A stretch of 64,000 bases of DNA, taken from assembly GCA_012514145.1 (NCBI GenBank), contig JAAZAV010000014.1, positions 119,265 through 183,264 of the forward strand, written 5' to 3'. A model generated the notes under the pieces. The model searched no databases. It worked only from the letters and a program-made list of their open reading frames with translations, and was not told the DNA's origin. Shown here in pieces: positions 25,110 to 46,739 of this stretch. Both the position numbers and the translations under genes were made by a program. How positions within the stretch are numbered: position 1 is the first letter of the stretch; the number at the start of each line of letters is the position of its first letter. Source of the stretch: Clostridiales bacterium. GTDB taxonomy: Bacteria > Bacillota > Clostridia > Oscillospirales > CAG-272.

Positions 25110-25357
25110 TTAAGCCGTAGCATCGGTGACATAATTGAGCCCAAGCCGTGGTGCCCGTCGTATAGTCCGGTTCGTCGGCAAACTCCAGCGAAAAGGAATG
25201 ACGCGCATATAATAATCAAAAGCCTTTACATCGGATTCTCCCATTACTGATGTTTGCAGAATTATATCATAAACAGCTAACCGTTTCAACAGTTATATTG
25301 TTAAGGTTAAAACTACATTGTAAGCCAATTCATCAACAATTTTATGGAGGTATTTAT

Positions 25358-26212
25358 ATGGACATTATGAGAATTCCACCTGAGGAGTTGGGTATCGGTT
25401 CCTCTATCAGACTTGAGCGCTGCAACACCGAGCATGACATCTACTGGAAGATGGCAATTGAGATGGTCGAACTCATCGCAAAAAACAACGCAGTCGGCAA
25501 GACCACCTTTATGGTTATCCCTTATGGCCCTCTCGGTTCCTTCAATATTCTTGTTTATCTTATCAACAAGTATCGCGTCAGTCTGAAAAACTGCGTATTC
25601 ATCAATATGGATGAGTATCTTAAGGATGACGGCAGCTATATTGATACAAGCGACGCACTGTCATTCCGCGGCGGAATGGATCGCATCTTCTACGGTTTAA
25701 TCGATGAAGAGTTAAATGTACTGCCCGAAAACCGTTACTTCCCGGATCCCGCGAATCCCGGTCAGGTGCTCGAACTCATGGGAAAATACGGCAAGTTCGA
25801 TATGACCTGGGGCGGTATCGGCATCAACGGTCACTTCGCCTTCAACGAGCCGCCGGAACCCGATGAGGAGTGCACCAACGAGGAGTTTCTGGAGCGTCCT
25901 ACCAGAATCCTCCCGATTTCCCGCGAGACCCGCACAATCAATGCCTACATGAACTGCGGCGCAAACCTTGAAGCCATTCCCAAACTATGCATCACCGTTG
26001 GCATGAAGGAAATCTGGCAGTCTGAACGAATCCGTATTCTAATGCCTCGAGACTGGCTGGCGGCTATGCTGCGCCGTGTTCTTCACGGTGAGATTACCTG
26101 CCGAGTTCCCTGTTCACTATTCCGCAATCATCCCGACTGCATGGTTTACGCCTGCAACGATGCGATTTACGGCGACGTTATTCCGAAAATCAGAGTTTAC
26201 AACAAAAAATGA
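25358..26212 (+). CDS. nagB: glucosamine-6-phosphate deaminase/isomerase family protein
   Basis: NagB-type motif WGGIGINGHFAFNEP. Start set to the ATG at 25358 (GGAGG 8 nt upstream); the 36-codon upstream extension in the track is not protein-like. Confidence 0.8.
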   Translation: MDIMRIPPEELGIGSSIRLERCNTEHDIYWKMAIEMVELIAKNNAVGKTTFMVIPYGPLGSFNILVYLINKYRVSLKNCVFINMDEYLKDDGSYIDTSDALSFRGGMDRIFYGLIDEELNVLPENRYFPDPANPGQVLELMGKYGKFDMTWGGIGINGHFAFNEPPEPDEECTNEEFLERPTRILPISRETRTINAYMNCGANLEAIPKLCITVGMKEIWQSERIRILMPRDWLAAMLRRVLHGEITCRVPCSLFRNHPDCMVYACNDAIYGDVIPKIRVYNKK

Positions 26213-27396
26213 AAGCGATTACCGGCGGCAGAATAGTTCTGCTCGATAAAAACACCGAAGGCAGCATTGCCGACGGCTGCACGCTGCTCTATGACAAGGG
26301 AAAAATTATAGGCATAGTGCGGGATGAGGTCATTCCGGACTGCGCCGAACGTATTGACGCGAAGGGGGGGTATGTCCTTCCCGGCTTTGTTGATATTCAT
26401 GTTCACGGCGGCGGCGGCAGCGACTTTCTCGACGGTACTGTTGAAGATATCCGCACCGTCACCCGTACACACGCACTGCACGGCACAACCTCCATTCTGC
26501 CCACCACTCTCACCTGTCCGAACGAGGTATTATTCAGAAGTCTTGATCTTATCATCGGTGAGATGGAGCGCGGCAGCGGAGACGGTGCTGAAATTCTCGG
26601 CGTTCATCTGGAGGGCCCTTACTTCTCCGGTGCGTCAAAGGGCGCCCAGGCTGTTGCAGAGCAGCGGATTCCCACTCTTGAGGAACTTGAGGAGATCAAC
26701 GCCCACGCCAAAGGACACATTGTCCGCTGGGATGCCGCTCCCGAACTACCGAATATGGATCTCTTCGCCGCCTGGCTGCGCGAACACGGGATTCTCGGTT
26801 CAATCGGCCATTCGGCAGCCGACGCCGAGTGTTCGCTCGAGGCCTTCGAGAAGGGCTTCACCCACCTGACACACATGTACTGCGCCACCACAACCGAACA
26901 CAAGAAGGATCAGAAAGTGCATGCCGGTCAGATCGAGGCGGTCTATCTTGAGGATGGCTTCACCACAGAGCTCATCGGCGACGGCTGTCACATTCCGCGC
27001 GAAACGATGCAGCTTGTCTTCAAACTCAAGGGGGCAAAGAAAACCGCGCTGATTACCGATGCCATGCGTGCCGCCGGTACCGACTGCGAGCGTTCGATAC
27101 TTGGCGACCGTGTCAGCGGCACTCCGGTTATAATCGAGGACGGTGTTGCAAAACTTGTAGACCGAACCTTCTTCGCGGGCAGTATAGCGACTCTCGACGC
27201 AGCACTCAGAACAGCTATAGGTTTCGGTATACCGCTTATCGATGCTGTGTGCTCGGTAACACTGACACCTGCGGAGATTATTGGATTCGATAACAGAAAA
27301 GGCTCGCTTGAATCAGGCAAGGACGCTGACATTGTAATCACCGACCCTTCGCTTAGTGTATGCGATGTGATTATCGGAGGACGGTCAATCATGTAA
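26209..27396 (+). CDS. nagA: N-acetylglucosamine-6-phosphate deacetylase
   Basis: GFVDIHVHGGGGSDF metal-binding motif, 395 aa. ATGA start/stop overlap with nagB. Confidence 0.9.
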   Translation: MKAITGGRIVLLDKNTEGSIADGCTLLYDKGKIIGIVRDEVIPDCAERIDAKGGYVLPGFVDIHVHGGGGSDFLDGTVEDIRTVTRTHALHGTTSILPTTLTCPNEVLFRSLDLIIGEMERGSGDGAEILGVHLEGPYFSGASKGAQAVAEQRIPTLEELEEINAHAKGHIVRWDAAPELPNMDLFAAWLREHGILGSIGHSAADAECSLEAFEKGFTHLTHMYCATTTEHKKDQKVHAGQIEAVYLEDGFTTELIGDGCHIPRETMQLVFKLKGAKKTALITDAMRAAGTDCERSILGDRVSGTPVIIEDGVAKLVDRTFFAGSIATLDAALRTAIGFGIPLIDAVCSVTLTPAEIIGFDNRKGSLESGKDADIVITDPSLSVCDVIIGGRSIM

Positions 27397-27532: not shown

Positions 27533-28963
27533 TTGGATTACATCACCTACGAGGCATACGGCGCTGTCGGCGACGGTGTCGCGAACGATATGCCTGCAAT
27601 CATAGCCGCCCACAAGGCTGCCAACGACACCGGACGTCCGGTGAAAGCCAGGAAGGGCGCGCACTATTTCATCGCCAACAAAGCAGCCAGTGCTGTTATC
27701 CATACAGATACCGACTGGACAGGCGCCCGTTTTACCATTGACGATCGCGATCTGGATAACGTCCGTGTCCCGATTTTCTCGGTAAGTGAAGATGAAAGCG
27801 AACCGATGAATCTGGCGCTTGAAAGCCTGGTTCACGGACAAACGCAGATAGATAATCCGACAGGTCGCGAGCTTTATGTCGCTGTATTCAACGACGACCA
27901 TCTCGACTACATTCGCAAAGGTGCGAATGAGAACAAGGGCACAGCCCGCCGCGATTGCTTTATAGTACGCCCGGACGGCAGTCTGACTTCACCGGTTTCC
28001 TTTGATTTTGAAAAGATCACGCGCGTCTTTGCCAAACCGGTAGCCGAAAAGCCGCTGGTTCTTCGCGGCGGAGAGTTTACTACAATCGCTAACTGCTGCG
28101 AATCGCGCTATAATTACCATTCACGAAATATAAGTATCACCCGATCCCGGGTGGAGGTTGACGGGTTAAAGCATTATATCACCGGAGAGCTTGATCACGG
28201 CGCACCCTACAGCGGTTTTCTAAGTATATCCGATTGCGCATATACCGATGTGCACGACTGCCTGTTTACCGGTCACAAGATTTATGACACCATCGGCGCT
28301 GCCGGCGTGCGTGTAAGTATGGGCTCCTACGATATCAGCATAGGTTCGGCAATATCTGCGGCTTTCCGGCGATGTTCCCAAACCACCGACATACTTGACC
28401 GGGGATACTGGGGGCTGATCGGATCGAACTTCTGCCGCGATCTGCTGTTCGAGGACTGTGTGTTCAGCCGATTTGACGCACATATGGGTGTGACAAACTG
28501 TACTCTGCGCCGCTGTAAGCTGGGCTGGCAATGTCTGAACGCAATCGGTTTCGGCGAGTTTCTTATTGAGGAAACCGAGGCGCTCGGTCACTCTTTTGTA
28601 AATCTCAGAGGTGACTACGGCTGTACCTGGTGCGGCTCGTTTACCATACGCAACAGTATCTGGCGACCAATGGGCGACAGCCGGTATATATTCCGCGCCT
28701 ATAACGACGGCAGCCATGACTTCGGTTACGACTGCTATCTGCCGCAGAATATCGTGATCGACGGACTTCGGGTGGAGTCTGACAAGCCGCAGTCACAGGC
28801 GTATGTTTTCAACGATTTTGTCGGAAAGGCGGGAATCGAAGGCGAGTATGCAATGAAGCGTCCGATATCGGTCAGCGCCCGCGGCATAACGGGTATCGGA
28901 GGACTGAAGCTCTGCGAGAACGACAAGCTCATGTCTGAAACGAAATTCACATATACAGATTGA
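27533..28963 (+). CDS. right-handed beta-helix protein (pectate-lyase-3 / GH28-related N-terminus)
   Basis: N-terminus YGAVGDGVANDMPAIIAAHKAA, typical of the Pectate_lyase_3 superfamily. TTG start 6 nt after GGAGG. No signal peptide. Confidence 0.65.
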   Translation: MDYITYEAYGAVGDGVANDMPAIIAAHKAANDTGRPVKARKGAHYFIANKAASAVIHTDTDWTGARFTIDDRDLDNVRVPIFSVSEDESEPMNLALESLVHGQTQIDNPTGRELYVAVFNDDHLDYIRKGANENKGTARRDCFIVRPDGSLTSPVSFDFEKITRVFAKPVAEKPLVLRGGEFTTIANCCESRYNYHSRNISITRSRVEVDGLKHYITGELDHGAPYSGFLSISDCAYTDVHDCLFTGHKIYDTIGAAGVRVSMGSYDISIGSAISAAFRRCSQTTDILDRGYWGLIGSNFCRDLLFEDCVFSRFDAHMGVTNCTLRRCKLGWQCLNAIGFGEFLIEETEALGHSFVNLRGDYGCTWCGSFTIRNSIWRPMGDSRYIFRAYNDGSHDFGYDCYLPQNIVIDGLRVESDKPQSQAYVFNDFVGKAGIEGEYAMKRPISVSARGITGIGGLKLCENDKLMSETKFTYTD

Positions 28964-32290: not shown

Positions 32291-33247
32291 ATGTCATATA
32301 CCGATATACGCGCCGCGCAGGATGATTTTTCGAGTCTGCGCTGGGGTGTTTTCCATCATTATCTCTGGAATCCACGTGTGTTTCCCGGCAGGCCAGAGGC
32401 GGCTGACTGGGCGAAGAACATAGAATCCTTTGACACCGACCGTCTGGCGCGAACTCTGCACGATATGGGCGCCGGGTACTATTTCATTACCATGGTGCAC
32501 GGCACCGAGTATATGATCGCGCCGAATGACGCTTTCAGATACATTGCCGGTTCGTGGGCTGACAGTGTATCTCCGCGCCGCGACCTTGTTGAGGATCTTT
32601 ATACATCGCTGTCACGCTACGGAATCAGGCTTTGTCTGTATTTCAACGCCTCGACACCGCTACTCACCTCTGTTGCCGCCGAGATGAACACCGCATTTGA
32701 CCGTGGCACCGAGCTTCCGAAGCCGGGAGTGAATGTGACACATCTTGCGGTACCCGAATCAACACGGTTGTGGGCGGAGGTGCTGCGGGAATACGCGGTG
32801 CGTTATGGCGACAAAGTGACAGCCTGGTGGCTGGACAGCTGTTACACCTGGTACGGCCACACGCCGGAAACAATGAAGTTGCTGTACGACGCCATAAAAG
32901 CGGGAAATCCGAATGCGCTCACCGCCTTCAACGGCGGAGTTATGAAGGATATTGTAAAATGGTATGCTGACGAGGAATTTACCTGCGGTGAATTCAATGA
33001 GTTCGACTATGTTCCCGACGGACGCTTCACCGATGGAGCTCAGAATCACATTCTCGCACCGCTGGGCTACACTCAGCATTACCGCGGCGGCTGGGGTGAG
33101 AAAAACTCCAAGATAACCGGCGAAGAGCTGCGCAGTTACCTGAAACGGCTTGAAGCGGCAGGCTGTCCGCTTACGATTGATGTCCACGTGCGCCCCGACG
33201 GTACCTTCGACCCTGTTCAGGAGGAGATTCTGCGTGCTCTCGCGTAA
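32291..33247 (+). CDS. hypothetical TIM-barrel-like hydrolase, possibly alpha-L-fucosidase (GH29)-related
   Basis: LRWGVFHHYLW and VTAWWLDSCY weakly resemble GH29 N-terminal blocks. The assignment is tentative. Confidence 0.5.
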   Translation: MSYTDIRAAQDDFSSLRWGVFHHYLWNPRVFPGRPEAADWAKNIESFDTDRLARTLHDMGAGYYFITMVHGTEYMIAPNDAFRYIAGSWADSVSPRRDLVEDLYTSLSRYGIRLCLYFNASTPLLTSVAAEMNTAFDRGTELPKPGVNVTHLAVPESTRLWAEVLREYAVRYGDKVTAWWLDSCYTWYGHTPETMKLLYDAIKAGNPNALTAFNGGVMKDIVKWYADEEFTCGEFNEFDYVPDGRFTDGAQNHILAPLGYTQHYRGGWGEKNSKITGEELRSYLKRLEAAGCPLTIDVHVRPDGTFDPVQEEILRALA

Positions 33248-33281
33248 TCCTGCCGATACGCGGTTATTTTACAAAATCCGG

Positions 33282-33310
33282 TTGATTGTAACCCCGTTAT
33301 CTGATATAAT
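33282..33310 (+). promoter_or_regulatory. sigma-A type promoter (extended -10) for the aminotransferase operon
   Basis: TTGATT (33282-33287), 17 nt, TGaTATAAT (TATAAT at 33305-33310). Confidence 0.72.
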
Positions 33311-33359
33311 AAAAGTTGAAATTTGAATTTCACAATACCTGATGAAGGAGTGACGTAAC

Positions 33360-34823
33360 ATGAACCGTTTGACATCTCCGTGTCTGTCGCTGTGCGATAT
33401 ACTCGGTGAGGAATACATTTCTCAGATACTGCGCTCTGCCGAGCTGACCGGCATCGACACCGATCCGAAACTCGCATACAAGAAGGTTGATTTTCTGCCT
33501 GATTCGAGGATTGAACAGCAGAAGAAGCTTCTCGCTGCGGTGGGCAGCAGCGTTAAGGAAGCCTGGAATGATACCGAGGACGGTTCTCCCACGGCATCGT
33601 TCAAAAAGGCTGATAACCGCAAAGCCGCATCGGTCGGCGGCGTGGGCTGCATGCGTGTCGGCGAGGACGGCAGACTATATCTTGTCGGCAAGAGCGAGCA
33701 TTACCATGCATCCCTCGGACACGATTTCGGCGGTTACAAGCTCATAAGTTACGCCAAATCCCTTGGTATTTCCAATGCAGCTCACAATAACAGCCGCGGC
33801 TATATCACCCGTCTGCTTGAAAGGCGGCTTGTCGAGACAATCGGCGTTCCCAGGCTTGACCGTGTCATCAACCTGGAAACGGGCAGTATTGCCTGTGAGG
33901 CGGGCATCAAAATGATGCTGGCGCGCTTCTATGCTCTTGACAATACTTTCGCAGAGCCGGTTTACAGCGGAAAAACGCCCGTATTCCTGGTGCTGAAAGG
34001 CAACTACCACGGCACAAATGTGGTTTCACAGATCCTCCGCGGCATGTGGGGCGGCATGTACAAAAAGCTGGAGGAAGCCGGAATCGTAAAGGTCGTCGAG
34101 CTTATCCCAAACGATATTGAAGAATTCAAAGCTAAGCTCACCGAACACAACAGCGGTTCATTCAAGACTGCAGGCTTCCTTCATGAGCTGATAATGATGA
34201 ACAACGGCGCCATAAAGCTTGATAAGGAATATATCCGTACTGTGTACAAGTTATGCGCCGAGAGCAATACTCCGACACTTGTGGACGAGATCCAGACCGG
34301 CATGTGGTATACCGGTATGTTCCTGTTCCGCCTGTACGGTCTTAAGCCTGACTTTGTCGTCATCGGCAAGGGCTTCCCGGGCGGTGAATACCCGGCAAGC
34401 AGGATTGTCACCAATGCCAAGATGGATACCCTGAATCAGTTCGGCGCCCTGGTCACCAACGGTCAGGAGGAACTGGCTTCCCTTGCGTACCTTATCACAA
34501 TGGAGTACCACAAAGCAAACGCCGAATACATCGGCAAACTCGGCGATCACTTCAATGCGTCTCTTAAGGCGATCGCTGACAGATATCCCGCACTTATAAC
34601 CTGCGTCGAGGGAATGGGGCACTGTTCTTCTCTTCAGTTCGTCAATGTTGAAGCGGCTGCCGATTGCGCCTCACACCTTAACAAGCGCTGCATTGACTGC
34701 TCGGTTCAGCTATACAAGGCCGAGTGTCCGCCGGCGCTGCTGCTCAAGCCGCCGCTTGTTGCCGACACCGATGTACTTGATTTCATAACCGACGCCATCG
34801 ACGAGGTGCTTAAGAATCTATGA
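33360..34823 (+). CDS. class-III (PLP-dependent) aminotransferase family protein
   Basis: DEIQTGMWYTGMFLF ... DFVVIGKGFPGG (class-III DExQTG block and Schiff-base Lys context). 487 aa with an N-terminal extension. GAAGGAG ribosome-binding site. Confidence 0.8.
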   Translation: MNRLTSPCLSLCDILGEEYISQILRSAELTGIDTDPKLAYKKVDFLPDSRIEQQKKLLAAVGSSVKEAWNDTEDGSPTASFKKADNRKAASVGGVGCMRVGEDGRLYLVGKSEHYHASLGHDFGGYKLISYAKSLGISNAAHNNSRGYITRLLERRLVETIGVPRLDRVINLETGSIACEAGIKMMLARFYALDNTFAEPVYSGKTPVFLVLKGNYHGTNVVSQILRGMWGGMYKKLEEAGIVKVVELIPNDIEEFKAKLTEHNSGSFKTAGFLHELIMMNNGAIKLDKEYIRTVYKLCAESNTPTLVDEIQTGMWYTGMFLFRLYGLKPDFVVIGKGFPGGEYPASRIVTNAKMDTLNQFGALVTNGQEELASLAYLITMEYHKANAEYIGKLGDHFNASLKAIADRYPALITCVEGMGHCSSLQFVNVEAAADCASHLNKRCIDCSVQLYKAECPPALLLKPPLVADTDVLDFITDAIDEVLKNL

Positions 34824-36256
34824 TTGTACTCGGAATAGATGTGGGAACCACAGGCACCAAGACTCTTGCCCTTAACGACAACGGTGAGATACTCGGCCGC
34901 GGCTACCATGAATACGGGCTTATCACACGTCCCGGCGGCATAGTTGAGCAAAAGGCTTCCGACTGGTACGATGCGGTCGTGATATCTGTAAGACAGGCGA
35001 CTGAGGGTCTCGAAAGGGACGACATAGCAGCGATCTCGCTCTCTACCCAGGGTGCGTCCATGACCGCGGTTGACTCGGATTTCAACGAACTCTGCAATGT
35101 CATCACCTGGATGGACAGACGCGCAGTCGAGGAAGCCGATTATATAAACGGCGTAATCGGCAGCGAGAATGTCTACCGCACTACCGGCTACTCCATCGGT
35201 CCCAGCATAGACGCTCCGAAGATACTCTGGCTGCGAAAGAACAACCCGGAGCTGACCGAAAAGACGCACAGTTATGTTTCTACAATCGAGTATATCAATT
35301 ATAAGCTCACCGGCGTCAATGTTATCGACCCCACCAACGCCGCCATACGCGGTATGTTCGACATCAACAAAGTCGGCTGAAGTGATAAAATCCTCGCCGC
35401 CATGGAACTTGACCTAAAATATCTGCCCGAGACGGCGGTCAGCAGTACCTGCATCGGCAGTCTGACCGAAACGGCTGCTTCCGACCTGGGAATAAGTCGT
35501 GATGTGAAGGTATATCTCGGCGCGCATGACCAGTATTGCGCGGCTCTCGGCAGCGGCGCGGTTAATGCGGGCGACATGCTGCTGTCAACCGGCACAACCT
35601 GGGTGGTTCTCGGAATATCCGACCGCATCATCTACAGTTCAAGCCATATCTCCCCAGGCATACACCCGGTAAAGGGGCTTTACGGCGAGCTGGCATCCCT
35701 TAAAAACGGCGGTTCGGCTCTCAAGTGGTATAAGCAGTTGGTGTCTGCCGAAAGCTATGCCGACCTGGATGCCAACGCCGCAGAGCGGCTTCACAGCTCC
35801 GCCGGACTGCTTTTTGCACCCTATTTTAACGGCGCGGGCTTCCCCACCTCGGATAACACCCGTTTCGGCAGTCTTCAGGGGCTGCAGCTGCATCACGATA
35901 AATACGACATCGCCCGGGCGCTTATGGAGGGTGTGGCATTTGAAATCAGGCGCACGCTCGATGAATTCGCTGCCAACGGGCTTGAAGTAAAAAATCTAAA
36001 ATTCATGGGCGGTGCGGCTAACAGCCGTCTCTGGACAGAGATCACCGGCTATATCACCGGTTGCCGAATGACACGCATGACCGAAAGCGAGGCATGTGCC
36101 GTGGGTGCGGCGCTTATCGCAGGCGTCGGCTGCGGTATGCTGCCGTCCTACGATATAGGGCTTGCATCCGAGGATATCGAGCTTAGCGACAAATCGCTGT
36201 ATGATTTCTATGATGATAAATTCAATGATTATGTCAATTTCGTAACAAGGATGTGA
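34820..36256 (+). pseudogene. FGGY-family carbohydrate kinase interrupted by one in-frame TGA (35378-35380)
   Basis: ORFs 34820-35380 (IVLGIDVGTTGTKTLAL, FGGY_N) and 35402-36256 (MGGAANSRLWTEITGYITG, FGGY_C) are in the same frame. Read-through gives ...FDINKVG*SDKILAAMELDLKYLPE, with the stop at the position of the Trp that I recall as conserved in FGGY kinases. Confidence 0.8.
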
Positions 36257-36263
36257 CCGTAAC

Positions 36264-37280
36264 ATGAGAGTAGAATATTTTGAACGCACGCCGCTGGATG
36301 CAGAGTTCTATGACAAATATCTCAAAGACCGCATCCCTTCAAAACTCATCGACATGCACCTACACTTCACCAAACCCGAGTTCTGCACCAACCTTCAGGT
36401 AGACCCAAACAGCTGGGCATCACAATGCAGCTCGAAAATGGAGTTTGAGGATTACAAGTATTACGCGAATATTTTCTATCCCGACACCGAGTTCTTTGTC
36501 AATGCCCTCCCATCGGTCACCAAGGGCATTGACATAGTGGGCAACAACGGCTATATCGCCGAACTGAAGGCTGCCGGCAAAGCCAAATACGCACATATGC
36601 TGGTCAATCCCGAGTGGACAGGCGATTACACCGAGAAAATGTTCCTTGAGGGCAATTTCGACGGCTACAAGCCCTATCCCGACTATGTATCGGGCAAGCG
36701 CGGCGCAGAGATCGGCATGTTTGATTTCGTCAACCCAGATCAGTATGAGATTCTTAACAAGTATAATAAGTCCATGGTGCTCCACCTTCCGAGAGCCGGA
36801 CGCTATCCCGACGACAACAACATCAAGGAACTGATTACAATCCGCGAGAAGTACCCGAATATTAAAGTCATCATCGCACACTGCGGCCGCTCTTACGCCA
36901 TGTATTTTATTACCGAAGCGGCAAGGAAGCTGGGCTCCATGTTCAACGACTTCTACTACGATCTCGCCGCAGTGCTCAATCCCGAGGTGTTAGATTTCAT
37001 GATGGCGAATGTTGATAACAAACGCATCATGTACGGCACCGACCTGCCGGTATTCCTGTGGCATGGCAAGCGCCGCTGGACCTACACCGAATATTTCAAC
37101 CTCGTCCGCGAGGATTTCAAATTCAACAAGCACGAGGAAGGCCCCGAGAAGGAAGCGGGCTACACCTTCTTCCTGTATGAGCAGCTTAAGAACATACTTG
37201 ATGTCACCGACAAATACGGCGGAAAGAAAACCGCCGAGGACATATTCTATAACAACGCAGTGAGAATTGTGGAGGGCTAA
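36264..37280 (+). CDS. amidohydrolase-2 family metal-dependent hydrolase (TIM barrel)
   Basis: LIDMHLHF near the N-terminus, IIAHCGRSY and MYGTDLPV blocks typical of Amidohydro_2. Confidence 0.7.
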   Translation: MRVEYFERTPLDAEFYDKYLKDRIPSKLIDMHLHFTKPEFCTNLQVDPNSWASQCSSKMEFEDYKYYANIFYPDTEFFVNALPSVTKGIDIVGNNGYIAELKAAGKAKYAHMLVNPEWTGDYTEKMFLEGNFDGYKPYPDYVSGKRGAEIGMFDFVNPDQYEILNKYNKSMVLHLPRAGRYPDDNNIKELITIREKYPNIKVIIAHCGRSYAMYFITEAARKLGSMFNDFYYDLAAVLNPEVLDFMMANVDNKRIMYGTDLPVFLWHGKRRWTYTEYFNLVREDFKFNKHEEGPEKEAGYTFFLYEQLKNILDVTDKYGGKKTAEDIFYNNAVRIVEG

Positions 37281-38654
37281 ATGGAAAAACTGAAAGTAGG
37301 GCTCCTGCCTCTTTATATCAAGCTTTATGACGACTTTTCGGCGCAGATGCGCCCGCGTATCGATCTCTTTTATGAGCAGATTACTGAGGCTATCCGTGCG
37401 AAGGGTGCAGAAGTTGTAACCTCACCTGTCTGCCGCCTGACCAAAGAGTTCAAAGCGACTGTTGCATATTTCGAGGAAGCCGGTGTTGACGCCATAGTCA
37501 CCCTGCATCTCGCCTACTCGCCTTCGCTGAAATCAGCCGAGGTTCTGGCTAACACCAGGCTGCCGATTGTTGTTCTTGACACTACCCCAACCTATATTTA
37601 CGATGCCTACACCGACCCCGCCGAGCTTTCATATAACCATGGCATCCACGGTGTACAGGATATGTGCAACCTGCTTCGCCGCAACGGCAAGTTCTTCCGG
37701 ATTCACGCCGGCCACTGGGAGGAGTCGGACGTCATAGACCGTGTCCTGGCATCTGTAAAGGGCGCAAAGTTGGCGAAGAAACTCCCCTCCATGCGTGTCG
37801 GAATGGTTGGTGAGCCTTTCAAGGGTATGGGCGACTTCCAGCTTGGCGGACGCAAGCTCAACAAGCTGCTTGGCTTCACCACCATCGACTTTGATATGGA
37901 TTCACAGTACGAAATATCCACGGCAGAGGCAGAAAGCGAATACGCGTATGACGCCGTTCGTTATGATGTTTCCGCGCTGACAAAAGATGAATATCTCGAG
38001 CGTGTAAAGGTTGATCTTGCAATCCGCAAGTGGGTCGAGGAACAGAAACTCGACGCCTTCACCGTAAACTTCCTCTCCACCTCAAAGGATAACGCCATGT
38101 ACTACATGCCCTTCACCGCCGCAAGCAAAGCCATGCGCGACGGTATCGGCTATGCAGGCGAAGGCGACCTTATGACCGCGGCTCTGGTCGGCACCTTCCT
38201 CAGCCAGTATAATGAGACATCCTTCACCGAAATGTTCTGCCCCGATTGGAAGAACAACTCGATATTCCTCAACCATATGGGCGAGCAGAACCCCAACTGC
38301 GCCGTCGGGTCCCGCTATGTAACCAGTTCATTTAAGTATACAGACGCCGGCGAGCCTATGAAGTTGGTCGGAACATTCAAGCCCGGCAAGGCGATATTCG
38401 CCTGTCTTGCTCCGCAGGCCGGCAACAAGTTCACTCTTATCGCTTCTCAGGTTGAGATGCTGGATACTCCTGCCGACAACCGTCACACCGGCGGCGTAAA
38501 CGGCTGGCTCAAGCCTGCCAAGCCGGTTTCGGACTTTCTTGAGGATTACAGCAGAAACGGCGGCATTCACCACGCGATGCTTGTCTACGGCGGAGATATC
38601 GAGGTTGTTAAAGCATTTGCCGAATATTCGGGTTTCGGTTTCGTTGAAATCTGA
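37281..38654 (+). CDS. L-fucose/L-arabinose isomerase family protein
   Basis: N-terminal KVGLLPLYIKLYDD pattern and about 457 aa length resemble the AraA/FucI-like family. The start abuts the upstream TAA. Family call from memory, not a search. Confidence 0.6.
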   Translation: MEKLKVGLLPLYIKLYDDFSAQMRPRIDLFYEQITEAIRAKGAEVVTSPVCRLTKEFKATVAYFEEAGVDAIVTLHLAYSPSLKSAEVLANTRLPIVVLDTTPTYIYDAYTDPAELSYNHGIHGVQDMCNLLRRNGKFFRIHAGHWEESDVIDRVLASVKGAKLAKKLPSMRVGMVGEPFKGMGDFQLGGRKLNKLLGFTTIDFDMDSQYEISTAEAESEYAYDAVRYDVSALTKDEYLERVKVDLAIRKWVEEQKLDAFTVNFLSTSKDNAMYYMPFTAASKAMRDGIGYAGEGDLMTAALVGTFLSQYNETSFTEMFCPDWKNNSIFLNHMGEQNPNCAVGSRYVTSSFKYTDAGEPMKLVGTFKPGKAIFACLAPQAGNKFTLIASQVEMLDTPADNRHTGGVNGWLKPAKPVSDFLEDYSRNGGIHHAMLVYGGDIEVVKAFAEYSGFGFVEI

Positions 38655-38693
38655 CGCAGACGCCGCATATATGTTTCACAGTGAGGTATTTAT

Positions 38694-39884
38694 ATGAATA
38701 ACATTGTAAAGATAGGTGTATTCGGCACCAAGCGCGGCAAATCCTTCATAAACGCTTTCAAAGATGTCGACGGTGTGAAGGTCACCGCACTATGCGATAA
38801 AAACACCGCAGCGCTCGATTCGGCAGCCGCTCTCTGCGATCCCGATGTGCAGAAGTATACCGACTTTGACGAATTCATCGAAAAGTCGGGTATTGACGCG
38901 GTTGTTCTCACCAACTATTTCCATCAGCATACCCCCTTCGCCATAAAGGCAATGGAGCGCGGAATCCATGTACTCAGTGAGACCACTCCTGCCTCGACTA
39001 TGGCGGAATGCGTTGCGCTCTGCCGCGCCGTTGAGCGTACCGGCTGCAAGTATATGCTTGCCGAGAACTATCCCTTCATGTGCTCATGTATTGAGCTTAA
39101 GCGCGTGTACGAAAGCGGCAAGCTCGGTCCGGTTATGTATGCCGAGGGTGAATATGTGCACCCCATGTCAGCCGCGGATTCCAATTCCATTTCCCCCGGT
39201 GAATTCCACTGGAGAAGGTGGCTGCCCCGCACCTATTATCTCACCCACTCACTGGCGCCTCTGATGCATATGACCGGCGCTATGCCGCTTAAGGTCAACG
39301 CCCGCACCTCCTGGCGTCCCGAATATTCCCTCGAGCGCGGCCGTGCGGTAGGCGACGGGCACAGCACCATCATGCTTGCCATGGATAATGACTCGGTGTT
39401 CCGTGTAGCCGGCTCATGCTGCTTCGGTCCTCATGGAAACTGGTACCGTCTCGGCTGTCTGCGCGGCGGCATTGAAACGGTGCGCGGCGATCAGAGCTCT
39501 GTCAGGCTTGTTTACAACTCCTGGGAGACTCCAGAAGGTGAGGAAAGCCGCACCTACACAGCCGAATGGAGAGAGCTGGGCGAGCTGGCAAGCAAAGCGG
39601 GACACGGCGGCGGCGACTTCTGGGTATGTTACCACTTCGCCAGGTATCTGACAGATGATGTCAAGCCATTCTTCGACGTGTACCGCTCAACTGCGATGTC
39701 GGCTGTCGCTATTCTCGCGTGGAGAAGCGTGCTTGAGGACGGTGCGACCAAGACTGTTCCCGACTTCTCCGACGAGGAGCAGCGGAAGCTCTGGGAAAAC
39801 GATACCGCCACCCCCTTCCCCACCGATGAGAACGGAATGGCAGCGGTATCTATGCCCTGCTCCAGCCGCGAGTTTAAAGTGTAA
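38694..39884 (+). CDS. Gfo/Idh/MocA family oxidoreductase
   Basis: N-terminal Rossmann KIGVFGTKRGKSF ... VTALCD ... DAVVLTNYFHQHTPFAIKAMERGIHVLSE(T)P pattern. Confidence 0.8.
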   Translation: MNNIVKIGVFGTKRGKSFINAFKDVDGVKVTALCDKNTAALDSAAALCDPDVQKYTDFDEFIEKSGIDAVVLTNYFHQHTPFAIKAMERGIHVLSETTPASTMAECVALCRAVERTGCKYMLAENYPFMCSCIELKRVYESGKLGPVMYAEGEYVHPMSAADSNSISPGEFHWRRWLPRTYYLTHSLAPLMHMTGAMPLKVNARTSWRPEYSLERGRAVGDGHSTIMLAMDNDSVFRVAGSCCFGPHGNWYRLGCLRGGIETVRGDQSSVRLVYNSWETPEGEESRTYTAEWRELGELASKAGHGGGDFWVCYHFARYLTDDVKPFFDVYRSTAMSAVAILAWRSVLEDGATKTVPDFSDEEQRKLWENDTATPFPTDENGMAAVSMPCSSREFKV

Positions 39885-39907
39885 TTGTTGTGAACTTATA
39901 GTTATAA

Positions 39908-39949
39908 CTCCCTGGTACCCAAAATCAAAGGTATCAGGGAGTTTTGTTT
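39908..39949. terminator. hairpin terminator between convergent operons
   Basis: CTCCCTGGTACC / GGTATCAGGGAG 12-bp stem (one G-U pair) followed by TTTTGTTT on the plus strand. Confidence 0.75.
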
Positions 39950-39958
39950 ATTCGGTTG

Positions 39959-40807
39959 TCACAATATAATATCAGAGTAAACGGGCATATGGTCGGAAAT
40001 CGGCATATACCATTCGGGCGCAGCGCGAACGAAGTTCCTGACTGTGCCATCGGCTATACCCCGGCAGAGGATGTGGTCAATTGCCTGTTCAAAGGTACCG
40101 GGATCGGGGTTAAGGTCAAAACCGCTGTTTCCGCATATGTGATGACCTCTTGTTTCGTCCGCATGGGCTGTGGCTATATCATGCGCATGGAGATAGCCGC
40201 GTGTCAGCAGCGATTGAATCGCCTCGGAGGAATACACGGCGTTAAGATCGCCGACGATATACCCGGGACAGTCATACTTTTCACAGAAGGCGTCAACCTC
40301 ATCCGCAAGGATGCCCAGCTGGTATTTCCGGGCTGCACCGCTGAAGGGCTGATAGGATTTTGATTCGGGATTGTCGCTCTTCCACCAAAGATGAGTGGAG
40401 GCAAAGACAAAGAGCCTGCCGTTCTCCTTGACCCGAAATACGGCTATTGTGCGGGATTTGGTTTTGCCGTTGTTGAAGCTGCCCTCGTGACCCGGGAGCT
40501 CTTCATCGTAAATTGCAAAACGCGAGTCAACTAACTCCAGGCGGTCGGCACGGTACCAGATCGGCGTATCGCGCCCCCAAAGTACGGCATAGTCTTTGCC
40601 GAGTGCGGTCAGTGATTCCTGTACCAGTTCGGTCATACGGGCGGAGATTTCCTGCAGACCGATAACGTCGGGAGCGGTCTCGTCTAAAATCCTCGCCACA
40701 CCCGGCGCACGGGCGTTAACGGAGCAGTCAAGCCCTTTCTCCGCCCATGCGGGCTGGTTTGTGTCGCATTTCCACAGGTTAGCGCTCAATATTCTCAGCT
40801 CTGCCAT
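39959..40807 (-). CDS. endonuclease/exonuclease/phosphatase (EEP) family protein
   Basis: LRILSANLW, VIGLQEI, GDLN and the C-terminal SDHMPVYSDI blocks. Confidence 0.85.
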   Translation of the reverse strand: MAELRILSANLWKCDTNQPAWAEKGLDCSVNARAPGVARILDETAPDVIGLQEISARMTELVQESLTALGKDYAVLWGRDTPIWYRADRLELVDSRFAIYDEELPGHEGSFNNGKTKSRTIAVFRVKENGRLFVFASTHLWWKSDNPESKSYQPFSGAARKYQLGILADEVDAFCEKYDCPGYIVGDLNAVYSSEAIQSLLTRGYLHAHDIATAHADETRGHHICGNSGFDLNPDPGTFEQAIDHILCRGIADGTVRNFVRAAPEWYMPISDHMPVYSDIIL

Positions 40808-42129: not shown

Positions 42130-44361
42130 TTAAGGATTGATATATTCGATTTTAACATGAAACGTCAGCTTTCCGCCGTATCTGTCGGTGATGATGCAGT
42201 CAGCTTCCGTGTATAAAGTCAAAGAATATATATACCAATCATCACGTCCCTGCAGCCAGCCATCTCCCCCGGTATGTACTTTGTATGATCCGTATTCCCC
42301 GGTCGTGCTGATTCCCAGTTTCGAGCCGTTAACTTCCGTTCTTACTATATGAACCACGGAGCCGTATTTCTCGACGCGATATTCCGGCTCGATGATATAA
42401 AGGTTTTCCGGCACCAGATTTTTGCGCCCCTGCCATTCAAAAGTCAGTCCTTCGCCGAGGACATAATCTCTCATGTCTATCCAATAGAGAGTGCCGTCCT
42501 TGGTGACTTCAAGTTTCGTCTGAGTCAGGTTATCCCGCTTGTATCTCAGCGTGCCTTCAAGCTTTGCCGGCATTGTCGCGAAATTGTGACCGTTTACCTT
42601 TCCTTTGCAGCGGAACCAGCAGCCGGAGGATTCCGACCCGACAAAGACATCGATTTTCTTGGAGTTGGTGTCGGGAAGGTCGACCCAGTTGCCGCCTTCG
42701 CTTCTGCGCTGCCAGACGCACTCGAGACTGTTGACTTTAAGTCCGATAAAATCAAAATCGAAACTGACACGTTCGTTGAATTTAGCTCTGACGCTCTTTG
42801 GATTCCGGATATTGTAATCTTTCGGCGCCGTGTCGTAGGTAATGGAAACCTCGTTGGAAATGACAGGTTCCGAATGCTGCCCGCTGATTACGCAGCGGAA
42901 TTTGAAAGTACCGCTGCCGTCCTCTTTGTACCATGTAAGCGTCGGAGTGTCAAATCCGGCAAACTGTGGGTTTTTATCGGGGACATCTCGCCAGTTGTTC
43001 AGCCATAAAAACTGCCAACGATAAAAGATCAAAGAATCGCCCGTTGCCTTGACATGAATCTCGGCAGGAACATTCTCTGTCTTGACAACGTTTTGCGGCT
43101 GCTCGGTTATTTTCAATTCCAGAAGCGAGTTGACTTTTGCCGGGGAAGAGGATACGGTAAGGCCATATCTGTCGGTGATAAGACAGATATACTCAGGCAG
43201 GCTGCCCGGTAATATTACATTTAATATCGGCGGCGGGTTTACCACGAGCGACAGCGTATTCGTCTGGGCGCCGGAGTAATTGGTTCCATCCTTTATATTT
43301 CTGTATTCATAGGACATGAATACTCCCTCTTCTTTGCTGAAGCTTCCGACCAGCTCCTGCCATTGATACTTAAGGTCAAGACCTTCGGCGCCGACATAGA
43401 GTGTGGCGATTTCTCCCGCCTTCTTTGTCTGTTCCTTCGGCTGCACGGTGATATTGATGCCTGGGCTTATAGGAATTATCGAAGCATAATCGGATGTGAC
43501 GGATTTGCCGTTTTTATCGGTTATGACGCAGCGGTAGCTGCCCGATCTGATCGCATATATATCGGCCAATATCGTCAGCTTCGATGCGGCTGCGCCGGAA
43601 ATGCCGCTTGATTCGTATAGGTCAACCCAGTTCCAGGAAGACGCCGCAGCGCTTTCCGGATTTGAATCGAAGGCTCTTTCATCCCGCTGCCATTTATATT
43701 TAAGACCCTCTCCGGACGCTTTGACTTCGAAGACCGCATAATCGCCCTCTTTGACATTGCAGTCTTCCGGCTGTTTTTCGATAACCGGTACGCCGGACGA
43801 CTCCGAAACCGGTTTCTCGTCGGAACCCGGCTTTTCGTCGGAATCCAAATCCGGCGTCGGCGCTCCTTTAAGCGTCAGGCTGAGCGTTCTCGCCTTCGGA
43901 TCCCAGACGTATTCTTTAGCGTAAAATTTCGCCAGGTCGTCGACGTAGATTATCGTACTGCCGCCGACGTTGAAGCTGTCCACCTTTACGCCGTCAAGAT
44001 AGGTGACAATGTCGGTGAAATACACCGGCATCGCCTTCGAGCCGATAGGATGGGTGTTTTTCTCCGGCTTGTATCCGCCGACTACCGGCACGCTTTCCAG
44101 CCGCCTTACGGTCAGCTCTCTTTCGACTCCGTACCATACTACATAAAAGCCGTAGTTCGAAAGGTCCTCAACTATAACGGCGGTGTTTCCTTTGATGTTG
44201 TAGGAACGAATTGGCAATCCGTTGATATAGGTTATGATGTCGGTGTGAAGAACATGATCGACCACATCCCCGACTTTCGGAGCGGCGAAGATAACCTGCG
44301 GCAGACACGCGAGAATTGTCAGGGTGAGCGCTAAAGCTAAGAATTGCTTGATTGCTTTCAT
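42130..44361 (-). CDS. secreted repeat protein, paralog A: signal peptide, two N-terminal ~65-aa repeats, linker, Ig-like modules
   Basis: Signal peptide ending IFA|AP. Repeats TDIITYINGLPIRSYNIKGNTAVIVEDL and TDIVTYLDGVKVDSFNVGGSTIIYVDDL. Ig-like signatures KYKWQ...GSYRCVITDKNGKSVTS, KYQWQ...EYICLITDRYGLTVSS, FYRWQ...FKFRCVISG and CVWQ...CWFRCKG. GAAAGGAA ribosome-binding site. Confidence 0.8.
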   Translation of the reverse strand: MKAIKQFLALALTLTILACLPQVIFAAPKVGDVVDHVLHTDIITYINGLPIRSYNIKGNTAVIVEDLSNYGFYVVWYGVERELTVRRLESVPVVGGYKPEKNTHPIGSKAMPVYFTDIVTYLDGVKVDSFNVGGSTIIYVDDLAKFYAKEYVWDPKARTLSLTLKGAPTPDLDSDEKPGSDEKPVSESSGVPVIEKQPEDCNVKEGDYAVFEVKASGEGLKYKWQRDERAFDSNPESAAASSWNWVDLYESSGISGAAASKLTILADIYAIRSGSYRCVITDKNGKSVTSDYASIIPISPGINITVQPKEQTKKAGEIATLYVGAEGLDLKYQWQELVGSFSKEEGVFMSYEYRNIKDGTNYSGAQTNTLSLVVNPPPILNVILPGSLPEYICLITDRYGLTVSSSPAKVNSLLELKITEQPQNVVKTENVPAEIHVKATGDSLIFYRWQFLWLNNWRDVPDKNPQFAGFDTPTLTWYKEDGSGTFKFRCVISGQHSEPVISNEVSITYDTAPKDYNIRNPKSVRAKFNERVSFDFDFIGLKVNSLECVWQRRSEGGNWVDLPDTNSKKIDVFVGSESSGCWFRCKGKVNGHNFATMPAKLEGTLRYKRDNLTQTKLEVTKDGTLYWIDMRDYVLGEGLTFEWQGRKNLVPENLYIIEPEYRVEKYGSVVHIVRTEVNGSKLGISTTGEYGSYKVHTGGDGWLQGRDDWYIYSLTLYTEADCIITDRYGGKLTFHVKIEYINP
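43865..44303 (-). repeat. 439-bp near-identical block (copy in paralog A)
   Basis: Aligns without gaps to 46167-46605 at an offset of 2302. About 5 mismatches in a 133-nt stretch compared by eye. Confidence 0.85.
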
Positions 44362-44461: not shown

Positions 44462-46663
44462 TTATTCCCAATCATATTCGATTGTAACATGAAATGTCAG
44501 CTTCTCGCCGTATTTATCGGTAATGTTGCAATACGCTTCTTCGTATAATTTTTCAACCACATACATTTCATCGTTGCCTGACCCGCTAAAATAGTACCTA
44601 TAATGGGTTGTACTTATCCCTAATCTCGGTCCATCAACTTGTGTTCTTATTACCCCAATTTCAGAGCCATGTGGCTCGAAGCGAATTTCCGGTTCAATGA
44701 TATAAAGGTTTTCGGGTATCCAGTTGTTGCGCCCTTCCCATTCATAAGTCAGACCTTCGCCTACGATATATTTGCTGACGTCTATCCAGTGCAGCTCGCC
44801 GTTAGTTTTGATTTTCATCGTTGTCTTCGTTAATCCGCTGCGTTTCGGAACCAGCGTACCCTGAAGCTGAGCCGGCATTGTTGTGAATTTATGACCGTTT
44901 ACCGTCCCCGTGCAGCGGTACCAGCAGCCGGAGTTTTCCGGAGTGATCTGCAGTAAAATGCTTGTGTCGGTAGGGTTTTTGCTTGGAAGATCAACCCACT
45001 TTCCGTCATTCCCTTTCATCTGCCATATACATTTTAGACTGTTAACCTTGATATTATAAAATCCAAAACTGAAAAAAGCTTCATCGTAAAATTTGCCTCT
45101 GAAAGTTTTAGGTTGGTATATCTGGTAATCTTCGATCGGCAGTTTGAAGGTAATCGCAGCTTCGTTGGAAATAACCGGTTCGGAATTCGGTCCGTCGACT
45201 ATGCAGCGGACATTTGAAGTACCGCTTGTATCTCGGCTCCATGAAAGCGTCGGTGTGTCAACGCCGGCAAATTTCGGATTATTTTCGGGGATGTCCGTCC
45301 ACTTTCCCAGCCATATAAACTGCCAGCGGTAAGAAAGCGGGAAATCGCCCTCCGCTTTTATATGAAGTTCGGCGGGAGCATTCTCGGTCTGTATAACATT
45401 TTTCGGCTGCTCGGTTATCCTGATTTCCCTGTAAGAGTTGATCATAGCCGGAGAAGAGGATATTGTCATGCCGTAGCGGTCGGTGATAAGACAGATATAC
45501 TTCTGTGTCCCGCCGGGCACTACTACCCCGAACATTTTCGACGCATCGACTTTAACCGTCAGAGTCTTCGTTTTGGTACCGGAGTATTTGCCGCCGTCAT
45601 CAATATTCTGGTATTCGGAGCTCATTAATATTCCGGAGCTGCTGTCGGCGTTGTATTTTAATACCAGCTCTTGCCACTGATATTTTAAGTCACTGCCGGT
45701 TGCTTCAACATAAAGGGTGGCGTATTCTCCCGCCTTCTTTCTTTGATCCTGCGGCTGTGTGATGATTTTAATGCTGGGCTTTAAGGGAATTATCGACACA
45801 TGATTTGATGTGACGGTTTTTCCGTTGCTGTCTGTTATAATGCAGCGATAGCCGCCGGAATAAACAGCGTCAAGGTCCACCAATACGGAGAGCTTCGATG
45901 TTTTTGCGCCGGAAATCCCTCCCCCGTCCGAAAGATTGACCCAATTCCAGGAGGAAGAAGTTGAGGCGCTGTCCGGCGTCGTTGATTTGGAGTCTGATTC
46001 TTCCCGCTGCCATCGGTATTTTAAGCCGTCTCCGGATGCTTTTACTTCAAAGAACGCATATTCGCCTTCTTTAACGCTGCAGCTCTCCGGTTGCTTTTCA
46101 ATGACCGGTTCTCCGGATGAACCAGAGCCCGGTTTATCTTCCGAACCTGAACCCGATGCAGAAGCGCCTTTAAGCGTCAGGCTGAGTGTCCTCGCCTTCG
46201 GATCCCAGAAGTATTCTTTCGCGTAGAATCTCGCCAGGTCGTCGACGTAGATTATCGTGCTGCCGCCGACATTGAAGCTGTCCACCTTTACGCCGTCAAG
46301 ATAGGTGACAATGTCAGTGAAATACACCGGCATCGCCTTCGAGCCGATCGGATGAGTGTTTTTCTCCGGCGTATAGCCGCCGACTACCGGTACGCTTTCC
46401 AGCCGCATTACGGTGAGTTTTCTTTGATCTCCATACCATACGACATAAAAGCCGTACTTCGAGAGATCCTCAACTATTACGGCGGTGTTGCCTTTGATGT
46501 TGTAGGAGCGGATCGGCAATCCGTTGATATAGGTTATGATGTCGGTGTGAAGAACATGATCGACCACATCCCCGACTTTCGGAGCGGCGAAGATAGCCTG
46601 CGGCATACCTGAAAACATTAATACAGCAAGCGCGAGGGCGATGAATCTCTTAATGGATTTCAT
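44462..46663 (-). CDS. secreted repeat protein, paralog B (same architecture as A)
   Basis: Start set to the ATG at 46663 (MKSIKRFIALALAVLMFSGMPQAIFA|AP; AAAGGAA 11 nt upstream). Residues of the two N-terminal repeats are almost identical to A, while the Ig-like part is clearly diverged (YRCIITDSNGKTVTS, KYICLITDRYGMTISS, VRCIVDG, CWYRCTG). Confidence 0.8.
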   Translation of the reverse strand: MKSIKRFIALALAVLMFSGMPQAIFAAPKVGDVVDHVLHTDIITYINGLPIRSYNIKGNTAVIVEDLSKYGFYVVWYGDQRKLTVMRLESVPVVGGYTPEKNTHPIGSKAMPVYFTDIVTYLDGVKVDSFNVGGSTIIYVDDLARFYAKEYFWDPKARTLSLTLKGASASGSGSEDKPGSGSSGEPVIEKQPESCSVKEGEYAFFEVKASGDGLKYRWQREESDSKSTTPDSASTSSSWNWVNLSDGGGISGAKTSKLSVLVDLDAVYSGGYRCIITDSNGKTVTSNHVSIIPLKPSIKIITQPQDQRKKAGEYATLYVEATGSDLKYQWQELVLKYNADSSSGILMSSEYQNIDDGGKYSGTKTKTLTVKVDASKMFGVVVPGGTQKYICLITDRYGMTISSSPAMINSYREIRITEQPKNVIQTENAPAELHIKAEGDFPLSYRWQFIWLGKWTDIPENNPKFAGVDTPTLSWSRDTSGTSNVRCIVDGPNSEPVISNEAAITFKLPIEDYQIYQPKTFRGKFYDEAFFSFGFYNIKVNSLKCIWQMKGNDGKWVDLPSKNPTDTSILLQITPENSGCWYRCTGTVNGHKFTTMPAQLQGTLVPKRSGLTKTTMKIKTNGELHWIDVSKYIVGEGLTYEWEGRNNWIPENLYIIEPEIRFEPHGSEIGVIRTQVDGPRLGISTTHYRYYFSGSGNDEMYVVEKLYEEAYCNITDKYGEKLTFHVTIEYDWE
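46167..46605 (-). repeat. 439-bp near-identical block (copy in paralog B)
   Basis: See 43865-44303. Confidence 0.85.
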
Positions 46664-46674
46664 TTTTATGACCT

Positions 46675-46739
46675 TTCCTTTCGCTGCGCTCAAGTCACAA
46701 AGGGTAATGAAACCAAATGCGACAGCGCAGAGTTAAAAT
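46675..46739 (-). repeat. 65-nt direct repeat copy R2 (5' leader of paralog B)
   Basis: Matches 41841-41906. It contains the ribosome-binding site and ends 11 nt before the ATG at 46663. Confidence 0.9.

Follow-up and report, generated by a model that had tools for sequence, protein, structure and literature searches.

In the catabolism of N-acetylglucosamine (GlcNAc) and N-acetylgalactosamine (GalNAc), by NagA and NagB or by AgaA and AgaS with a kinase, the sugar is deacetylated, loses its nitrogen and is phosphorylated. The AraA/AraB pair, like FucI/FucK and RhaA/RhaB, combines an isomerase with an FGGY kinase. Couples of a keto-sugar dehydrogenase and an aminotransferase are known from biosynthesis, namely NtdC/NtdA (kanosamine; NtdA belongs to another fold type of pyridoxal phosphate (PLP) enzymes) and GabT1 (1-deoxynojirimycin), and Tpa/Ald joins a class-III taurine:pyruvate aminotransferase to an alanine dehydrogenase that regenerates pyruvate. 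We compared with these systems an operon at 33282-39952 in a 64,000-nucleotide stretch (the window) of contig JAAZAV010000014.1 (positions 119,265 to 183,264, forward strand) from the Clostridiales bacterium assembly GCA_012514145.1. The operon runs from a promoter to a terminator and contains five co-directional genes for cytoplasmic enzymes: an atypical class-III PLP aminotransferase (AT), a sugar kinase of the FGGY family whose gene carries an in-frame TGA, a divergent Amidohydro_2 metallohydrolase (AH2), an AraA-like isomerase (ISO) and a protein of the Gfo/Idh/MocA fold (GFO).

The operon resembles GlcNAc and GalNAc catabolism in that it could deacylate a sugar, remove its nitrogen and phosphorylate it, and a NagA gene lies 7 kb upstream. 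It differs in having an Amidohydro_2 rather than an Amidohydro_1 protein, a PLP transaminase rather than a deaminase-isomerase, a kinase of the FGGY rather than the ROK or PfkB type, and an AraA-type isomerase that has no counterpart in those pathways. With AraA/AraB it shares an AraA-type isomerase with aligned residues and an FGGY kinase, but both miss the curated cut-offs (84 of 622 and 313 of 380 bits), the operon has no AraD or other aldolase, and an aminotransferase and an amidohydrolase are added. As in NtdC/NtdA and GabT1, a canonical Gfo/Idh/MocA dehydrogenase adjoins AT in 23 related loci; those systems are biosynthetic, however, and the dehydrogenase is absent from this genome. As in Tpa/Ald, a class-III aminotransferase is encoded together with alanine dehydrogenase in related loci, but only in 3 of 80 and not in this window, and the substrate here would be sugar-like. 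Our reading, with a probability of roughly 55%, is that this is a widespread catabolic module which would take an N-acylated amino sugar from glycoside cleavage through phosphorylation, and that the kinase has been lost in this genome. The module looks ordinary but is genuinely an orphan.

The five enzymes

The AT gene (33360-34823, plus strand) encodes 487 amino acids (aa) with a conserved N-terminal extension of ~90 aa. The Pfam Aminotran_3 match (87.2 bits against a gathering score of 30.5) covers residues 94-484, so that the extension precedes it, and the extension is retained in relatives. The Schiff-base lysine K337 (in GKGFPGG) and D309 (in DEIQ) are invariant in 14 sequences and align with the GKaLsGG and DEVQ motifs of acetylornithine and ornithine aminotransferases. 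The top NCBIfam model is ornithine aminotransferase, whose cut-off of 378.4 is not reached by a score of 87.8 bits. No second copy of AT was found in the genome, where the gene is thus single-copy. Among 8000 scored candidates, 2250 proteins were related to it at E <= 1e-20; the 120 matches listed were all 50-56% identical, except for one conspecific protein at 98%, and query coverage was at least 97% in 119 of the 120, the extension being included in the match.

The AH2 gene (36264-37280, plus strand, 338 aa) gave a Pfam Amidohydro_2 match of 34.5 bits over residues 161-264 only. Residues H32, H34, K136, H174, H206 and D260, together with several arginines, are invariant in 28 sequences. HxH, Lys, His, His and Asp in that order form the binuclear amidohydrolase ligand pattern, and the invariant residues of AH2 would fit this order as read along the sequence. 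In a profile comparison with the PDB, the only entries below E 1e-4 were the uncharacterised structural-genomics structures 2f6k, 3cjp and 3ij6, with decarboxylases and one hydrolase at E > 1e-3; no similarity to a characterised lactonase was found in the Pfam and PDB profile comparisons. This candidate metal pattern suits an amide hydrolase, and AH2 is likely an N-deacylase, the role we propose for it.

An exhaustive AH2 profile search returned 299 family representatives at E <= 1e-30. Six long or odd proteins among the best 150 were scanned for domains: one is an FGGY-AH2 fusion, one an AH2-AT fusion and two are fusions with GNAT, while the remaining two are a protein with a partial Gfo N-terminus and a plain one. 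An earlier word-based search had found no fused forms at all, a result overturned by the exhaustive search. Alongside the FGGY and AT fusions, the protein Atlas independently gives a cluster from Verrucomicrobiota, 13% of whose members have "both domains". The two GNAT fusions (P0269 and P0326) represent both orders, Amidohydro_2-GNAT and GNAT-Amidohydro_2, a hint that the removal of acetyl groups may be linked to their addition.

The ISO gene (37281-38654, plus strand, 457 aa) encodes an AraA-type aldose-ketose isomerase, with the central and C-terminal AraA domains of Pfam. Its family profile matched L-arabinose isomerases over the full length, 7cx7 with 138 bits over positions 62-461. In the alignment with 7cx7 and 4r1o, the invariant residues E294, E317, H332 and H430/H431 fall on the GEGD, ME, HM and HH motifs. 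Two glutamates and two histidines constitute the metal and catalytic set of AraA. Against the AraA equivalog ISO scored 84.2 bits and did not reach the cut-off of 622.

The GFO gene (38694-39884, plus strand, 396 aa) has the GFO_IDH_MocA N-terminal domain of Pfam. A profile built from the GFO of the window and 15 cassette homologues matched the GH109 alpha-N-acetylgalactosaminidase 2ixa with 186.8 bits over positions 3-371 of 404, that is, over the full length including the Rossmann N-terminus, and the Akkermansia GH109 enzyme 6t2b with 152.7 bits; the next Gfo protein scored 77.2 bits and in its N-terminal part only. The protein of the window alone gave just 52 bits against 2ixa, and inspection of the N-terminus revealed no signal peptide, two respects in which GFO differs from the GH109 enzymes. 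In AmGH109A the catalytic residues are Tyr226, His259 and His404 (PMC10755693). Invariant Y154, H185 and H304 of GFO align with these three, all under one offset of +25 between chain index and published numbers, and GFO lacks the lysine of the EKP motif that ordinary Gfo dehydrogenases have. GFO is GH109-like and, by these residues, of the putative NAD-dependent glycosidase type.

Proteins of this kind are strikingly expanded in the 2.8-Mb genome, which has 37 matches to the GH109-like profile, 9 of them near full length (examples are C48:336-1481, C46:25681-26850, C2:90358-91566 and C44:72679-73827 of genome G000). A further query, with a canonical Gfo/Idh/MocA protein, matched 32 places.

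The kinase gene (34820-36256, plus strand, 478 codons) encodes a xylulokinase-like protein with both FGGY domains (FGGY_N, 179.7 bits; FGGY_C, 96.2 bits); its score against the XylB equivalog, 313.2 bits, is below the cut-off of 380.25. The families named by a first-pass annotation of the same DNA were all confirmed: a class-III aminotransferase with an N-terminal extension, an FGGY kinase with a TGA, an Amidohydro_2 protein (a partial match), an AraA/FucI-like isomerase and a Gfo/Idh/MocA protein. For the last of these the family stood, but the oxidoreductase role gave way to a GH109-like one, with a full-length match and three aligned catalytic residues.

The sulfoquinovose route was also considered. 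NAD-dependent sulfoquinovosidases exist, according to PMC10755693. The route was ruled out: ISO matches SftI weakly (35 of 700 bits) and AraA scores higher, GH109 is clearly best for GFO, and the operon contains no aldolase, transaldolase or transketolase gene.

Gene neighborhoods and the interrupted kinase gene

In a pattern scan with one genome per species, at least 578 of 599 matches encode an AT relative. The carriers among the matches listed are mostly metagenome-assembled Clostridia, many of them from the gut, with several named Paenibacillus, some from soil; these cultured and named carriers, among them P. dakarensis FF9, P. agaridevorans T-3040 and P. chungangensis, make experimental tests practical. 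Of 151 genomes in the order of the window 6 encode AT, and of 7 other genomes in its family none does, a patchy distribution which indicates that the module is accessory rather than core.

To compare gene neighborhoods, 80 AT loci were kept and partners were identified by tblastn; 31 of these loci are flanked by 8 kb or more on either side. The FGGY kinase lies near AT in 65 of the 80 loci, AH2 and ISO in 48 each, and the full trio in 43; for the 31 well-flanked loci the figures are 30 (FGGY), 27 (AH2), 28 (ISO) and 27 (the trio). Adjacent pairs over the 80 loci were AT-FGGY (42), AH2-ISO (33) and GFO4-AT (23). GFO4 stands for a canonical Gfo/Idh/MocA dehydrogenase that carries the EKP motif; among solved structures, 6a3f and a scyllo-inositol/L-glucose dehydrogenase come closest to it. 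Gene order is variable, with 41 different strings of cassette genes. In each of five tested genomes whose AT locus contains only AT-FGGY, an adjacent AH2-ISO pair was found elsewhere. The core of the module is two gene pairs, AT with the FGGY kinase and AH2 with ISO. The expectation that the genes would be co-conserved was thus borne out, with the core co-located in shuffled orders and all three partners present in 27 of 31 well-flanked loci. Companions of the core are GFO4 (33 loci), the GFO type of the window (19), DeoR regulators (16 + 9) and transporters of several types (CUT1 ABC, Bmp/PnrA-type ABC and MFS).

In 9 of the 80 loci the neighbor of AH2-ISO or GFO5-GFO4 is a lipoprotein of ~500 aa that has a lipobox but matches nothing in Pfam, and it also stands beside several separate AH2-ISO pairs (loci L116:4474-6021, L028, L037, L074 and others). 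It is probably the solute-binding protein of the module.

In the window itself the kinase gene is interrupted by a TGA at codon 187 (35378-35380, plus strand). The first-pass annotation had counted six genes; there are five, since the open reading frames 34820-35380 and 35402-36256 are one kinase gene split by this TGA. All 9 aligned relatives have Trp at this position, one of them a conspecific protein that is 97% identical. The 90%-identity cluster of the kinase contains three intact 478-aa variants, the pair of 186 + 284 aa found in the window and, on another contig, a pair of 96 + 381 aa in which the break falls exactly at the invariant Trp97. None of the five conspecific variants has a shortened AT, AH2, ISO or GFO; the kinase alone is broken, in two of the five. 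Loss of the kinase is probably recent, recurrent and kinase-specific in this species, and the premature stop means that the pathway is probably impaired in this strain. Nonsense alleles confined to the kinase are a small natural experiment on which step costs most to keep. A close relative of the kinase was sought by DNA search in 30 related genomes, but only weak partial matches were returned, so that codon 187 could not be viewed in a sister genome.

One could suppose that the kinase is functional after all, the TGA being an assembly error or read as Trp. Each of the two breaks seen in the species coincides with a Trp codon (W187 and W97), low-level read-through of UGA by tRNA-Trp is known in bacteria, and the broken alleles have not diverged more than their neighbors (9-13 differences in 478 positions against 8-16 in 487 for AT, if variants are rightly paired with strains, which we assume from matching lengths of the longest contig). 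Yet nonsense codons arise most commonly when TGG changes to TGA or TAG, the 186-aa fragment was recorded from 6 contigs of several sources, and three intact alleles exist. Recoding was rejected as well: TGA ends 17 of the 40 long open frames of the window, the AT gene included, and the 35 tRNAs detected in the genome, which is 85% complete, include a sole tRNA-Trp, with the anticodon CCA, and neither a UCA anticodon nor a selenocysteine tRNA. A working kinase is therefore unlikely, and we favor a true loss.

A proposed route and its alternatives

The best reading of the module is that it acts on an amine-bearing sugar released from an imported glycoside. Every step proposed here is derived from enzyme family, partner genes and fusions, and the steps are given in one possible order. 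The GH109-like, NAD-dependent enzyme would free an N-acylated amino sugar from the imported glycoside, and AH2 would remove the N-acyl group. AT could then transfer the amino group onto pyruvate. The products would be alanine and a keto sugar, and the keto sugar might be reduced in many other genomes by the adjacent dehydrogenase GFO4, the gene missing here. The AraA-type isomerase would make a ketose and the FGGY kinase would phosphorylate it for central metabolism.

The transamination step gains some context from related loci. The cassettes of L042 and L054 include a gene for alanine dehydrogenase, placed between DeoR and FGGY, and in L060 such a gene precedes the cassette (the L042 protein was scanned against Pfam, whereas the other two were assigned by clustering), and genes for ThrE-type exporters lie inside four cassettes. 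Such neighbors fit an amine:pyruvate transaminase that makes alanine. We would go further only tentatively, at somewhat less than even odds, and propose that the route is widespread yet undescribed, that the nitrogen of the N-acylated amino sugar is taken off by deacylation and PLP-dependent transamination and not by a deaminase of the NagB or AgaS type, that cytoplasmic GH109-like enzymes, NAD-dependent glycosidases, feed the route in some lineages, and that in this gut species it is repeatedly switched off at the kinase in particular. The annotation had also spoken of a catabolic route for an unusual amino or keto sugar from an imported oligosaccharide; the amine-bearing sugar survives in our reading, while its dehydrogenase and lactonase logic and an intact route in this genome do not. 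With GFO as GH109-like and AH2 as a likely deacylase, the search for the substrate is narrowed to N-acylated amino-sugar glycosides. Naming the sugar would at one stroke explain what four large families of orphan enzymes do, and add a nutrient niche to models of glycan use in the gut.

Several observations weigh against this catabolic reading. Characterised members of Amidohydro_2 are mostly decarboxylases, lactonases and hydratases, not deacetylases, and the FGGY and AT domains fused to AH2 relatives are only 21-22% identical to those of the window, which makes them analogous fusions, a recurring association of chemistries and not orthology. A 2-acetamido sugar would give an aldose-ketose isomerase no obvious substrate before its nitrogen is removed. 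Alanine dehydrogenase occurs in just 3 of the 80 loci. The GFO type of the window is in only 19 of them and has 9 near-full-length paralogues in the genome, and it may be an add-on rather than part of the core. No orthologue of GFO4 was found in this genome, the best of the 32 matches being 28% identical. No NCBIfam equivalog cut-off (release of June 2026) is reached by any of the five proteins, so no curated model names them. To these must be added the active site of AT and the chromosomal settings of some cassettes, both of which bear on specific alternatives.

In class-III enzymes an arginine before the PPL motif binds the alpha-carboxylate of the co-substrate. This arginine is replaced in the AT family, which has LLKPP where IRLAPP (5viu), IRLTPP (1z7d) or IRIEPP (4uox) is usual, and its absence means that AT may not be an ordinary transaminase. 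AT could instead be a PLP-dependent lyase, mutase or epimerase acting on the product of the kinase, in the manner of the known pairs of amino-alcohol kinase and phospho-lyase. Such a role would also suit the tightness of the AT-FGGY pair, the closest of all, the active-site loop, which reads DEIQ..MWY and not the usual DE.QTGFGRTG, and the best curated score of AT, 88 of the 378 bits required. Against it stand the alanine dehydrogenase genes inside the cassettes of L042 and L054 and the canonical keto-sugar dehydrogenase next to AT in 23 loci, the usual partner logic of sugar transamination. We regard this alternative as improbable and retain transamination to pyruvate.

The chromosomal settings might suggest a housekeeping function. 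In 8 loci of Clostridia (L001, L006, L010, L012, L017, L019, L044 and L046) the cassette comes directly after mreB-mreC-mreD-PBP2, and in 13 (L018, L022, L036 and others) after YfhO-ruvA-ruvB, in both settings on the same strand. No one transporter type is conserved in the cassettes, and the module might then be biosynthetic, for example by making or recycling an amino sugar of the cell envelope, rather than serve the catabolism of nutrients. This has little likelihood in our view: the spread over the order is patchy, many cassettes have genes for DeoR repressors and uptake systems, the kinase is lost in two of five conspecific variants, and the operon of the window sits among glycosidase genes.

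There is likewise a slim chance that the gene set is an already described pathway, missed by our comparison with the literature and the curated libraries. The literature was covered as open-access full text; within that scope no description of this gene set was found, and the five proteins stay below the curated cut-offs. A complete enzyme set of the canonical Nag, Aga, Fuc, Rha or Ara operons was not found in the operon, and the claim that the genes match none of the Nag, Aga, fucose and rhamnose routes agrees with our results.

An oxidative route, in which a Gfo-type dehydrogenase makes a lactone that AH2 opens before isomerase, kinase and transaminase finish the work, is very unlikely, although Pfam places the two proteins in GFO_IDH_MocA and in Amidohydro_2, which includes sugar lactonases: GFO is GH109-like over its full length, with the catalytic Tyr, His and His and without the EKP lysine, AH2 has relatives fused to GNAT, FGGY or class-III AT domains and the HxH/K/H/H/D pattern, which speaks against the lactonase role once claimed for it, and neither a dehydratase nor a keto-deoxy-acid aldolase is encoded in the operon.

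Operon signals and surroundings

The 112-bp gap ahead of the AT gene contains a promoter-like site of the sigma-70 type with an extended -10 box (TTGATT-17-TGaTATAAT, 33282-33310, plus strand), which matches the consensus at 10 of 12 positions, has the TG and was tied for the top score in a promoter scan. The scan returned 23 sites against 9.2 +/- 3.5 in shuffles, so that a single site is weak evidence, and it is the location in this gap that gives it weight. Directly after the -10 box lies a candidate operator, a perfect 7+7 inverted repeat (TGAAATT-TG-AATTTCA, 33317-33332), and GAAGGAG stands 9 nt 5' of the AT start codon. The genes are tightly coupled, with an ATGA overlap of AT and the kinase at 34820-34823 and a TAAATG abutment of AH2 and ISO at 37278-37283. 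The operon ends in an intrinsic terminator (39906-39952, plus strand) with a 14-bp stem, a 10-nt loop and a T-tract; the stem, at 39906-39943, has a dG of -26.8 kcal/mol (z -4.9) that none of 200 shuffles equalled, and the length of its loop explains why a pattern scan had overlooked it. Promoter, terminator and both couplings had been proposed from the letters alone and were recovered here.

No regulator gene was found within the operon, DeoR genes being found in related cassettes instead, and Rfam (E <= 0.1) gave no match across 32800-40300, hence no known riboswitch or other RNA in the leader or operon. Genes for an aldolase, epimerase, dehydratase, keto-deoxy-acid aldolase, transaldolase or transketolase were likewise not found in the operon; the sole Aldolase_II gene of the genome sits on a different contig.

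Upstream of the operon lie genes for a GH43 enzyme, a BNR protein, a divergent NagB-like protein, NagA, a GH106-like protein, an SGNH esterase and a GH29-like protein. NagA (26209-27396) scores 242.9 bits, above its cut-off of 225.65, whereas the adjacent NagB-like gene (25250-26212), which has an N-terminal extension, reaches 78 bits against 236.9; of the nagBA pair annotated here only NagA is canonical. No canonical NagB was found above the cut-off in the 85%-complete genome, which has two further divergent NagB-like genes. The upstream glycosidase genes were matched in none of the 80 loci, and NagA-like and NagB-like genes weakly in one. The link once drawn between the operon and the neighboring glycosidases is therefore confined to this genome among the loci examined.

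Among the glycosidase genes, four open reading frames of 476-752 aa (17121-19058, 20983-22464, 27533-28963 and 47312-49570) have no match in Pfam or NCBIfam. Downstream of the operon, on the other strand, are genes for an EEP-family protein and a 2-hydroxyacid dehydrogenase, and a heparinase II/III-like gene is at 49630-51750. Two tandem paralogues of 742 aa lie on the minus strand at 42130-44361 and 44462-46693, their sole Pfam signal being a weak Ig-like domain.

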